A stretch of DNA of 16,031 bases from a virus. Of the stretch, positions 4,290 to 8,534 are shown one piece after another. Each line of letters begins with the position of its first letter. The stretch's first letter is position 1. The notes under the pieces are model-generated. The model did no database searches. It was not told where the DNA came from and saw only the letters and a program-made list of their open reading frames with translations. The position numbers were made by a program, and so were the translations under genes. The stretch lies in the UHGV virus genome UHGV-0259371; one strand, written 5' to 3'.

Positions 4290-4319
4290 ATTATACCACA
4301 TCCTTGTGGTAAAGTAAAC
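4290..4319 (-). promoter_or_regulatory. T4-type early promoter for the rIIA.1-rIIA-rIIB unit
   Basis: Minus strand: GTTTAC-TTTACCACAAGGATGTGG-TATAAT. The G of the gene 39 stop codon TAG is the first base of GTTTAC. Confidence 0.7.
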
Positions 4320-6139
4320 TACTGGCTCATCCATTCTTTACGAAGGTCAGCATTATCTCCCATGAGCATTTCAAAAAGCTCTTTCCAATTCTCAGGAAGT
4401 TTAACAACATCATATACTGGATTTTGAATCATCTCACGATATTCAGATTTTTCCAAAGAGCCAAGTCCCTTAATATAACGGATGCTATGTTTAGGTAGAG
4501 CATCTTTGGCACTCTCATATTCAGCGACTGTATAAAACCATTCTTGTTTTTTACCGACCTGAGCGATGATTACAGGAGTTTTGACAAAGCGAATTCGTCC
4601 TTGCTCAAACAATTCTGGCCAATTACTAAAAAATCCGAGCAGAGAAGGATAAATGCTTCCTAGACCATCATGGTCAGCATCAGTCATAATAGCAATATTG
4701 CGATAATTCAAGTTTTCAGCTTTTTCACCAAGAACTAGACCAGTGATTGCGCAAATATCAAATAGTTCTTTGTTTTTAAGCATATCGGCATATGACATAC
4801 CCCAGCTATTAAGAACTTTACCGCGCAATGGATAACCACCATGAAGTTCTTTATCGCGAACATCAATAAGATATCCGATAGCTGAATCACCCTCAGTCAA
4901 GAACAATGTAGTGTCAGCATCTTTACCGCAAAGATTCGCTTTGATATGTTTATGAACCTTAGCTTTAGAAGCCTTTTTAGCTGCTTTAGTTTCTGCTGCT
5001 TTTTCTGCTGCCAATTTACGAGCTAATGCTGCTTCAATAATTGGCATCAAAATTGCTTCATTATTTAGAATAGCGCGTGAAATCTTTTTAGCATCAAGTT
5101 GAATATGACTACGGATTTCACCAAATGGAGAAGTCAAACGCTCTTTAGTTTGAGAATCAAATCGCATGTTTTTCATATCACGAACAAACATAACGATAGT
5201 CAAACATTCTTTGACACGTGCTTTAGTTACATCAATTTTGAACTTACGTTTGATTTGTGGAATAAGGTCTTCACAAATATCATCCATAACACAGTCAATG
5301 TGATGGCCACCATTCTTAGTGTGAATGTTATTGACGTACGTCAACTGACGAAAACCATCCGGTGAACGACCAACCGCAATAGAACAATTTTCTTGTTCTT
5401 GAACAATAGCATGTTCATCATACTGTCGTGCATATTTCTTAAAATTGCCCTGAACCTTTTTACCATTAAAGGTAAATTGAATATCAGGATAAACAACAGC
5501 AAGTGTTTGGAGACGATCTAGTGTAATGTCAAGATAAACTTGGGACAGCTCATTAGTTTCAAATGACATAAAATCAGGAATGAAAGTAACACGGGTTCCT
5601 TTCCATTTTCCAGGAATATCTTCCCATGATTTATTTTCCATGCCGTTTGAACAACGAACTACAATATTATTTTGACCATCACCAGTTTCACCGACAAACA
5701 TCACAGAAAAAATGTTTGTCAAACTAGAACCAACACCATTCATACCACCGGTGACGCGTTCTTTATCATCACCGAAGTTACCACCTGCTTTTGGAATAGT
5801 CCACGCAGCAACAGGACCAGGAATTTCTTCACCGGTAGGTGTTTTAACCATCGCTTGTGGAATACCGCGACCGTTATCTTCAACTGTTACTTGATTGTTT
5901 TTAATAGTAACATTAATTTTATTTGCGAATTTAAACTTAGTACGAATACCTTCATCTACTGAGTTATCGATAATTTCATCAATAAGCTTAACAAGACCAG
6001 GTACATACTGAACACTTTCCCATTTACCAAACAGAAAGCGCTCATGCATTTCATTAGCAGAAGAGCCAATGTACATGCCGCTACGCTTTTTGATATGTTC
6101 AATATCGCTCAGAATTTTAATTTCATTCTTAATCATCAC
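4319..6139 (-). CDS. 39: DNA topoisomerase II large subunit (GyrB-like ATPase + TOPRIM), 606 aa, unsplit
   Basis: GHKL motifs IDEIIDNSVDEG, EDNGRGIP, GGMNGVGSS; TOPRIM motifs LTEGDSA and MTDADHDG. Sits upstream of rIIA.1/rIIA as in T-even phages. Confidence 0.9.
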   Translation of the reverse strand: MMIKNEIKILSDIEHIKKRSGMYIGSSANEMHERFLFGKWESVQYVPGLVKLIDEIIDNSVDEGIRTKFKFANKINVTIKNNQVTVEDNGRGIPQAMVKTPTGEEIPGPVAAWTIPKAGGNFGDDKERVTGGMNGVGSSLTNIFSVMFVGETGDGQNNIVVRCSNGMENKSWEDIPGKWKGTRVTFIPDFMSFETNELSQVYLDITLDRLQTLAVVYPDIQFTFNGKKVQGNFKKYARQYDEHAIVQEQENCSIAVGRSPDGFRQLTYVNNIHTKNGGHHIDCVMDDICEDLIPQIKRKFKIDVTKARVKECLTIVMFVRDMKNMRFDSQTKERLTSPFGEIRSHIQLDAKKISRAILNNEAILMPIIEAALARKLAAEKAAETKAAKKASKAKVHKHIKANLCGKDADTTLFLTEGDSAIGYLIDVRDKELHGGYPLRGKVLNSWGMSYADMLKNKELFDICAITGLVLGEKAENLNYRNIAIMTDADHDGLGSIYPSLLGFFSNWPELFEQGRIRFVKTPVIIAQVGKKQEWFYTVAEYESAKDALPKHSIRYIKGLGSLEKSEYREMIQNPVYDVVKLPENWKELFEMLMGDNADLRKEWMSQ

Positions 6140-6163
6140 TTATCCTCGTTTGGTTTCGGGAAT

Positions 6164-6188
6164 ATTATACTCCGGTAATCATAAAGCT
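6164..6188 (-). promoter_or_regulatory. Candidate middle-type promoter upstream of gene 39 (MotA-box-like AGCTTTA, 12 nt, TATAAT)
   Basis: Minus strand: TTTAGCTTTA-TGATTACCGGAG-TATAAT, then GAGGA RBS and ATG. Box differs from consensus TGCTTTA at one position. Confidence 0.4.
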
Positions 6189-6190
6189 AA

Positions 6191-6206
6191 AGGCCCGAAG
6201 GCCTTT
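6191..6206 (-). terminator. C(UUCG)G hairpin (AGGCC-UUCG-GGCCU) between the lipoprotein gene and gene 39
   Basis: GC-rich stem with UUCG loop on the minus transcript, overlapping the lipoprotein stop codon. Confidence 0.5.
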
Positions 6207-6475
6207 TATTTAAAACGAATAGTTGAATCCTTAAAGAACAGCCCAGAACATACTGTTCCTTCTACTTTCTGCCCGGTAGGTCCAATAGCACGAAATCCAG
6301 TATGTTGGAAATCATTTTCAGAGCAACCGAACCAGTTATATCCAGTGATTTCAATATTAGTAAAACCACTTGAAGATAAAACTTTGGTTGCATTATCAGC
6401 ATCAGTACATCCTGCTAAAGACACTGCTAATACTAATGCTGCGATAGAACGATTAATATATTTCATAATTTTCAC
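6206..6475 (-). CDS. Predicted lipoprotein, 89 aa (signal peptide plus lipobox LAGC)
   Basis: N-terminus MKIMKYINRSIAALVLAVSLAGC: basic n-region, hydrophobic h-region, lipobox L-A-G-C with Cys at ~23; Thr at +2; two further Cys in the mature part. Track start is GTG; ATG three codons in is an alternative. Confidence 0.6.
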   Translation of the reverse strand: MKIMKYINRSIAALVLAVSLAGCTDADNATKVLSSSGFTNIEITGYNWFGCSENDFQHTGFRAIGPTGQKVEGTVCSGLFFKDSTIRFK

Positions 6476-6849
6476 TCAAATTTAATGGCTTGAAGAAGAC
6501 TAATAATTCTCAAGCGACTTCTTTCATCTTTAACTGTAAAAGAAAGAGGGTCGCCAGATTTCATGGTAATAGTGCATTCAAAATCAAAATCTTCTGTGAC
6601 TTCTTCGAAGAAGTCAAATTCTTCATCATAAATTAGAACATTACTCTGAAAACTGTGAAGAATTTTTCCATCATTTCCGGATGCTGTACTAATCATTGTA
6701 ACATTATGACCTTTCATATCTTCAACGATAAATTCGCTTGTAGATATTACAGCATTAATAGAACCATTCCTATAAATAGCAGACATTAGATATTTCTTTT
6801 CTTCGCCTTCGCGAATACGATATTTCTTACCGATTTTAAACATAATCAC
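6472..6849 (-). CDS. Hypothetical protein, 125 aa
   Basis: ORF in the early operon, overlapping neighbours by 4 nt on each side; GTG or downstream ATG start. No motif recognised. Confidence 0.5.
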   Translation of the reverse strand: MIMFKIGKKYRIREGEEKKYLMSAIYRNGSINAVISTSEFIVEDMKGHNVTMISTASGNDGKILHSFQSNVLIYDEEFDFFEEVTEDFDFECTITMKSGDPLSFTVKDERSRLRIISLLQAIKFE

Positions 6850-7022
6850 CCTTTAAGTAAATCGTAAAAACCACCATTCACATGCTTAGGAGCAGAAGGC
6901 CGACGAGTAGACAAACGATGACATTTAGGGCAAACATCATTTTCTCGTTCAGAAATCTTTTTAATTTTTTCATATTCATGCCCGCAATCTTTAGATTGGC
7001 ATTTATAATCATACATCGGCAT
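6846..7022 (-). CDS. Small zinc-ribbon protein, 58 aa (FmdB-family-like), absent from the ORF track
   Basis: Hand translation: MPMYDYKCQSKDCGHEYEKIKKISERENDVCPKCHRLSTRRPSAPKHVNGGFYDLLKG. Two Cys pairs (C-x4-C ... C-x2-C); RBS AAGGAA before ATG; fills the gap between the 141-aa and 125-aa ORFs exactly. Confidence 0.6.
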   Translation of the reverse strand: MPMYDYKCQSKDCGHEYEKIKKISERENDVCPKCHRLSTRRPSAPKHVNGGFYDLLKG

Positions 7023-7024
7023 AA

Positions 7025-7450
7025 TTATTCCTTAAAATGTGCTTTCAACATCTGATACAAGGACCATGCCTGTTCATTATTTTCAATAGTAACTTTCATG
7101 ACTGGGAATTCTGTGAAATCTTCTATTTGTTCTTGCTCTTGCTCTTCCTGCTCTTGCTCTTCAGCTGCCTGATATGGATTTTCCACTTCATCAAAGAACT
7201 CGGCTTCGTTAGTAGAGAGCCAGATAAAGTTTTCGTCAAGGATATCACCATGTGTTGCATATCCAATTGTGCCAGTAAATGACATAATTTTAGTAGGACG
7301 ACCAAGATGGTCAACATCTAAAATTTTAAAAGGATGCATACCTAAACGTCGTGCATAAATTCCGTTATCAGTATGGTCTTTAATAAAAGCTTCTTGAGCT
7401 TGTTTATTTTTAAATTGATACCATTTATTAACTTCAAATTTAATAGCCAT
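7025..7450 (-). CDS. Acidic early protein, 141 aa, with an [12 protein letters not shown] tract (possibly the goF equivalent by position)
   Basis: ORF between the zinc-ribbon ORF and a 71-aa ORF. Length and position fit T4 goF as I recall it, but this is not verified. Confidence 0.5.
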
Positions 7451-7665
7451 TAATAAATTTCCTTCCAGTAAGTTGTACCGTCTTCAGTGATTTCACGGAA
7501 TACACCATAAATCGGTTGTTTATCACCAACCTTTTCATACACATAAACCGAAGTCAAGTGAGTAAACTTGATGGTGTGTTCCTTTTGAACTACTACCAAA
7601 TCTGGATCGAATAATACATCTTCAAATTCGTCATTAGTGCAATTCTGAACAATTTTACGTTTCAT
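7450..7665 (-). CDS. Small early protein, 71 aa (possibly the cef equivalent by position)
   Basis: ORF with 1-nt start/stop overlap with the 141-aa ORF. Assignment is positional only. Confidence 0.45.
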
Positions 7666-8045: not shown

Positions 8046-8534
8046 TTATGCATAGAGAGCATTGCTATAGTGTTTAATCCAACTTTCAGGAATGACTTTG
8101 TATGTTCCTAAAAATACCACGTTGTACAACTTAACGCCATCTTCTACCCATTGATCGGTAATGTATCCACACATAGCGCGAGTATAAGCAGCCTTTCCAT
8201 CATCTTTGATAAATTTAAATTCGCAAGGAGCAATGAACTTAATAGCCTGACCGAGTTTCCACTTAAAGTCTACACCTACATGCGAAGTATCAATCGTTTC
8301 AATTCCTTTAGCAGGAACAGCTTTCAAAAACGCAGATTCAAGAAATTTCGCGCGAACATAACCAAACTGAGGTTTAGACTTTCCATCTTTAGGAATGATA
8401 CGAACTTTTACTTCAGAATCTTCATCTTTAACGCCATGTTTAAGCTGAATGCTTACAATTTCGACCAATTTTCCTGCTGCTTTAGAACGGGATTTATCAG
8501 ACACACGAGCAATTTCACCAATATTAATAATCAT
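8046..8534 (-). CDS. motB: MotB-like basic early protein, 162 aa
   Basis: 162 aa, lysine-rich, own early promoter, located between the cef-like ORF and dexA as on the T4 map. Identification is by length and position only. Confidence 0.5.
   Translation of the reverse strand: MIINIGEIARVSDKSRSKAAGKLVEIVSIQLKHGVKDEDSEVKVRIIPKDGKSKPQFGYVRAKFLESAFLKAVPAKGIETIDTSHVGVDFKWKLGQAIKFIAPCEFKFIKDDGKAAYTRAMCGYITDQWVEDGVKLYNVVFLGTYKVIPESWIKHYSNALYA

Follow-up and report, generated by a model that had tools for sequence, protein, structure and literature searches.

The unlisted 58-codon reading frame upstream of gene 39 in a T4-like phage is an ortholog of T4 early gene 39.2

The open reading frame of 58 codons at positions 6846..7022 (minus strand, stop codon included) of the 16,031-nucleotide stretch of viral DNA analyzed here, UHGV-0259371 (the window), is the ortholog of the T4 early gene 39.2 (NwgI). 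This assignment draws on the sequence itself, on profile hidden Markov models, on orthology, and on the pattern of selection. The product is a small zinc-ribbon protein of the FmdB family, and we consider it likely that, as in T4, it is made early and acts on the host chaperonin GroEL. The gene is already known, annotated, and characterized in T4, so that the finding, though correct, is no new one. Many sequence records already carry the frame as either a "zinc ribbon domain-containing protein" or an "FmdB-like transcriptional regulator". The first-pass annotation, made from the letters of the window, was right about both the gene and its family, but missed the identity with T4 39.2, the existing annotation, the published function, and the unusual spacing of the first cysteine pair.

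The window belongs to a Tequatrovirus, that is, to a T4-like phage. Around 39.2, the sequence shares 98.5% identity with Escherichia phage Kelasse and has matches in 663 phage records.

The reading frame and its neighborhood

The frame runs from an ATG at 7022-7020 to a TGA at 6848-6846 and translates into MPMYDYKCQSKDCGHEYEKIKKISERENDVCPKCHRLSTRRPSAPKHVNGGFYDLLKG. It had been proposed that the frame went unlisted because of a cutoff of 60 residues, that it is preceded by a good ribosome-binding site, and that it exactly fills the gap between its neighbors, and all of this is borne out. With 58 residues the product falls just short of the cutoff; a Shine-Dalgarno-like AAGGA (7029..7033, minus strand) lies 6 nt 5′ of the ATG, within the last codons of goF; and spacers of 2 nt separate the gene from the goF stop codon TAA (7027-7025) on one side and from the ATG of the next frame (6843-6841) on the other. 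The start-site junction, GAATAATTATG, is the same in T4 and in T4T. A listing cutoff of 60 residues conceals genuine functional phage genes, and here an unlisted frame turns out to be a gene that has a name and, in the literature, a target in the host.

All of the surrounding genes lie on the minus strand. Following transcription, the series comprises motB (8046-8534), in the 5′ part of the run; a frame of 93 codons; cef (7450-7665), next upstream of goF; goF (7025..7450, 141 residues), which adjoins 39.2 upstream; 39.2 itself; a frame of 123 codons (6472..6843), which adjoins it downstream; a frame for a lipoprotein-like product of 89 residues, the counterpart of T4 39.1 (6206-6475); and gene 39 (4319..6139), which encodes the large subunit of DNA topoisomerase II as an unsplit protein of 606 residues and is the conserved anchor of synteny downstream. 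The 39.1 homolog has a signal peptide with the lipobox LAGC and is therefore probably a lipoprotein. Gene 39 is likewise unsplit in RB69 and Dhakavirus, whereas in T4 the mobA/60.1 insertion divides it into genes 39 and 60, the latter with a translational-bypass element. The 123-residue protein is present in RB69 (38% identity) and absent from T4. Both it and GoF match phrog_622, which makes it possible that 39.2 is flanked by two very distant paralogs, but a duplication of goF was rejected as its origin, because a direct BLASTP comparison is non-significant (E = 0.28) and the two are at most distantly related. A scan for sigma-70-like promoters and terminators gave no excess over shuffled sequence and nothing convincing directly 5′ of 39.2, which would fit an early transcript spanning several genes but is uninformative.

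Conservation and selection bear out the first-pass view that the frame is a real small gene. A tblastn search recovered it from 880 phage records, 852 of them with at least 80% query coverage. Among 21 distinct close coding sequences, the variable sites number 12, 11, and 40 at the first, second, and third codon positions, respectively; dN/dS relative to the window sequence is 0.05-0.15, the median for 151 pairs is 0.04, and the frame is under strong purifying selection. The overlapping frames at 6878..7012 (minus strand) and 6882..7055 (plus strand) have acquired stops or lost their start codon in relatives. One could still regard so short a frame as non-coding spacer or a chance occurrence in an early region rich in AT, especially as the T4 protein went undetected in one proteome, but conservation and selection refute this reading, and with family-model scores above the curated cutoffs and a published deletion phenotype in T4 also against it, we give it practically no weight.

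The orthology with 39.2 is equally direct. Gp39.2 from modern T4 records (MT984581 and HM137666) is identical at 48 of 58 residues (83%) over its full length, shares the four cysteines and the C-terminal SAPKHVNGGFYDLLKG, and is likewise encoded between goF and 39.1/39; the ten substitutions fall mainly at residues 14-15 and 38-42, and the window phage differs further in having the 123-residue gene between 39.2 and 39.1. The homolog in RB69 (ORF006c; Mosigvirus) is closer still, with 52 of 57 aligned residues identical (91%) and the same flanking genes, including a homolog of the 123-residue frame, but is 59 residues long and ends in ...LLKKG. Close orthologs measure 57-59 residues. T4, RB69, Dhakavirus, and Moonvirus share the order goF-39.2-(39.1)-39, and in the Krischvirus JSE a gene annotated as gp39.2 lies immediately upstream of gene 39.

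The T4 reference sequence itself is misleading at this locus. In NC_000866/AF158101/M89919, 39.2 is annotated with 45 residues (NC_000866 5702-5839), because the sequence carries one extra T (GCTTCCTAAG versus GCTCCTAAG in the DNA alignment) together with several base differences, which we attribute to sequencing errors of the 1990s. The 11 independently sequenced T4 records that we compared, among them T4T HM137666, MT984581, KJ477684-6, and OZ209023, are free of these differences and 96.1% identical to the reference over 206 bases; only entries from the 1990s match it at 99.5-100% over the same length. The re-sequenced genomes encode a Gp39.2 of 58 residues, the length given in the literature. 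The truncated reference protein can mislead both homology transfer and proteomics searches. The reference is probably wrong at 39.1 as well, since that gene, which reads ...SLINSTDAD before its stop and is annotated there from an internal start with 65 residues, is annotated with 86 residues in modern T4 records.

Zinc-ribbon domain and C-terminal tail

The suggested membership in the FmdB zinc-ribbon family was checked against profile models, and the protein scores above the curated cutoffs of both Pfam PF09723 (Zn_ribbon_8; 45.8 bits versus 34.4) and TIGR02605 (FmdB family zinc ribbon protein; 45.0 bits versus 31.3); it also matches phrog_1076. The zinc-ribbon domain comprises residues 1-41 (6900..7022, minus strand), as delimited by these matches, an AlphaFold2 model, and cysteine conservation. 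It begins with MPMYDYKC, which fits the family pattern MPxYxYxC from the initiator methionine onwards. The first knuckle, C8-x4-C13 (codons 7001-6984, minus strand), and the second, C31-x2-C34 (codons 6932-6921, minus strand), are separated by 17 residues. The first-pass annotation had named conservation of the four cysteines in homologs among the points to check, and loss of the frame or its cysteines in related phages as grounds for giving up the proposal; frame and cysteines are both conserved, as is the N-terminal pattern. Across an alignment of 81 family sequences, Y4, Y6, C8, and C34 never vary, and C13 and C31 reach at least 90% conservation. The C-x4-C form of the first knuckle is common to the orthologs from Tevenvirinae (10 of 56 distinct proteins). 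In Krischvirus-type homologs, for example that of JSE, the first knuckle reads C-E-E-H-G, that is, C-x2-H, with the second zinc ligand replaced, so that the putative zinc site would be of the Cys3-His type or use a shifted set of ligands.

Beyond the ribbon, both the alignment and a profile-profile alignment that reaches through this part delimit a C-terminal motif, S43-A-P-K-H-V-N-G-G-F-Y-D53 (6864..6896, minus strand), which is the counterpart of "KGSGFYxTD" in cellular FmdB proteins. Alignment A1 has A44, P45, and G51 of this motif invariant, along with P2, Y4, Y6, and C8 at the N-terminus. We considered the tail sequence "GGFYDLL" as a mimic of the GroES mobile loop and dropped the idea, because the motif is merely the "GSGFY" found throughout the family.

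AlphaFold2, run with the 81-sequence alignment, predicts four β-strands with a pLDDT of ~80 over residues 1-40, a model compatible with a zinc ribbon, in which the four cysteines would be the putative zinc ligands. In the tail the pLDDT is 56-61, and the conserved segment SAPKHVNGGFYD is probably flexible. Prediction from the single sequence was unusable (pLDDT 50.6). Searches of the PDB by sequence and with Foldseek turned up neither a structure of the 39.2 protein, alone or bound to GroEL, nor a significant relative: the best sequence match was the zinc finger of Fpg (E = 0.059), and the Foldseek matches were all generic small zinc ribbons, the best with E = 0.45. Such fold matches tell nothing about the function of the protein.

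The cellular members of the family share with the phage protein the N-terminal MPxYxYxC, the two cysteine knuckles ~17 residues apart, and a G-F-Y element after the ribbon. They differ in having a CxxC first knuckle instead of C-x4-C, FQxxxDxPL instead of KIKKISERE in the linker, and GxGIIFKGSGFYxTDY instead of SAPKxxNGGFYD in the tail, as well as a low-complexity C-terminal extension rich in Ser, Lys, and Cys that is missing from the phage-encoded 39.2 protein.

Action on GroEL and the alternatives

Our own analyses concern the reality of the gene, its family, orthology, synteny, and the selection acting on it; for the effect on GroEL we depend on the literature, namely on two secondary summaries of the mechanism, both from the original laboratory. 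According to one of them, T4 39.2 is a peptide of 58 residues that, on genetic and biochemical evidence, shifts GroEL to an open, GroES-binding state, and its deletion is wholly blocked on specific groEL hosts; the genetics described in this summary are specific to groEL and groES alleles (PMC5153855, summarizing Ang & Georgopoulos 2012, Genetics 190:989). Suppression of groEL/groES alleles by the gene is likewise known from the T4 literature. The suggestion made from the window alone, that of a host-takeover or regulatory factor, was thus right in spirit, the T4 ortholog being a published modulator of host GroEL. Its designation as an early gene agrees with a multi-omics study of T4, in which the 39.2 transcript was classed as early and the protein went undetected by mass spectrometry. 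Non-detection is unsurprising for a protein of 58 residues whose reference sequence is truncated.

Ang and Georgopoulos reportedly first selected 39.2 from RB69, and the homologs from T4, RB43, and RB49 are said to have behaved alike. The RB49-type protein, which is Krischvirus-like, is reportedly still active on GroEL. Transferred by analogy from T4 to the window phage, whose protein differs at 10 of 58 residues, the effect on GroEL suggests the following mechanism. The gene would be transcribed early as part of a leftward polycistronic goF-39.2-39 region, and, with such tight packing, its translation may be coupled to goF translation. The 39.2 protein, a zinc ribbon with four cysteines (residues 1-41) followed by a conserved and probably flexible tail, would shift GroEL toward the open form that binds either the host GroES or the phage Gp31, and GroEL-dependent phage proteins could then fold even where the chaperonin function of the host is marginal. 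Ribbon and tail may each contribute to the action on GroEL. Gp31, encoded by a gene outside the window, offers a functional analogy, in that both T4-type proteins adapt the host GroEL to the phage. Gp31 is a GroES-like heptameric lid that replaces GroES, and its fold is unrelated to that of Gp39.2, with which it has no sequence relationship.

The label under which the protein is often found in databases would instead make it a regulator of transcription, with DNA or RNA polymerase as its binding partner. The name "FmdB-like transcriptional regulator" is indeed attached to phrog_1076 and to many RefSeq records, the neighboring early genes motB and goF act on transcription or mRNA, and the weak, non-significant fold matches include RbpA and subunit P of RNA polymerase (E ≥ 0.45). 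However, among the Pfam and NCBIfam families, no helix-turn-helix or other DNA-binding family exceeds its cutoff, and the zinc-ribbon model is the only one that does. The label is unsupported for the 39.2 protein, given that no DNA-binding domain is detectable. The name FmdB itself is said to derive from adjacency to the formamidase gene in Methylophilus and not from any regulatory assay. Since the sole functional data on an ortholog concern GroEL, we regard a regulatory role as improbable; the available evidence favors modulation of the chaperonin, against the standard database label.

Somewhat less improbable, though still unlikely, is that the 39.2 protein is a general cofactor of the chaperone network, with DnaK/DnaJ/GrpE, or Hsp70 and Hsp60 together, rather than GroEL specifically as its main target. 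By the same reading, to which we assign the same low likelihood, the GroEL phenotypes seen in T4 would be one aspect of a broader ancestral function of FmdB proteins. What speaks for it is that cellular FmdB genes occur within or directly after dnaK/dnaJ/grpE operons, and that homology between the phage group and the cellular group is clear (hhalign probability 98.9%, E = 1.5e-17, 52 columns). Against it stand the bias of the sample toward relatives of a single operon-linked protein, the paucity of linkage among homologs chosen in another way (both detailed below), and the allele specificity of the T4 genetics as summarized from the original laboratory; moreover, gene adjacency is no proof of mechanism. 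We retain modulation of GroEL as the preferred reading.

Cellular FmdB genes and chaperone operons

A profile search yielded 1641 members of the family. The gene for a member from Omnitrophota, P0074, lies 19 nt after hrcA-grpE-dnaK-dnaJ. We inspected one cellular locus from each of 80 species, taking those that best matched P0074-like sequences; this sample is biased toward relatives of an operon-linked protein and contains many loci of shared ancestry. In this biased sample, chaperone genes are found in the flanks of 27 of the 80 FmdB loci, in every case on the same strand; the distance to the closest chaperone gene is below 500 nt in 22 of the 27 linked loci and below 150 nt in 17. GrpE is encoded nearby in 23 of the 80 loci, DnaJ in 21, GroEL in 13, and DnaK in 9, whereas each of the controls RecA, EF-Tu, and FtsZ is encoded in none of the same 80 flanks. 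The arrangement is groEL-groES-groEL-dnaJ-grpE-[fmdB] in 13 loci from Planctomycetota, some of them cut by the end of the contig; hrcA-grpE-dnaK-dnaJ-[fmdB] or grpE-dnaK-[fmdB] in Omnitrophota; and grpE-dnaJ-[fmdB]-dnaK, dnaJ-[fmdB]-dnaK, or [fmdB]-dnaK in other phyla. No chaperone link was seen in the loci from Verrucomicrobiota, Spirochaetota, and Bacteroidota among the 80. When homologs were picked with a profile derived from the phage proteins, one of five cellular ones was chaperone-linked; a sixth looked-up homolog, P0015, lies on a phage-like contig.

The location of the cellular homologs in chaperone operons provides independent support for the link of 39.2 with chaperones. In the literature searched, we found incidental mentions only and no connection between FmdB and chaperones, and T4 Gp39.2, which acts on GroEL, is the sole functionally studied member of the family that we found. 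The operon link is a lead that fits the chaperonin role of the phage protein and may hint at what this large, functionally uncharacterized family does. If the link holds up, these tiny and widespread proteins would gain a function that can be tested. We tentatively propose, as a possibility that we hold to be less likely than its negation, that FmdB/Zn_ribbon_8 proteins are, in several bacterial phyla at least, accessories of the Hsp70/Hsp60 systems, and that Gp39.2 is a captured and streamlined member that retunes GroEL.

Distant 39.2-like zinc-ribbon genes also occur in other phages and phage-like DNA, none of them near a topoisomerase gene. In the Vequintavirinae A73 (2501-2677 of the extracted locus) and PcCB7V (2501-2680 of its locus), they lie two genes downstream of the gene for DNA ligase, and on a phage-like contig of 306 kb (6001-6270 of the extracted locus) such a gene is directly upstream of the DNA ligase gene. 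The frame in PcCB7V is unannotated and has ATT, not ATG, at the aligned start position.
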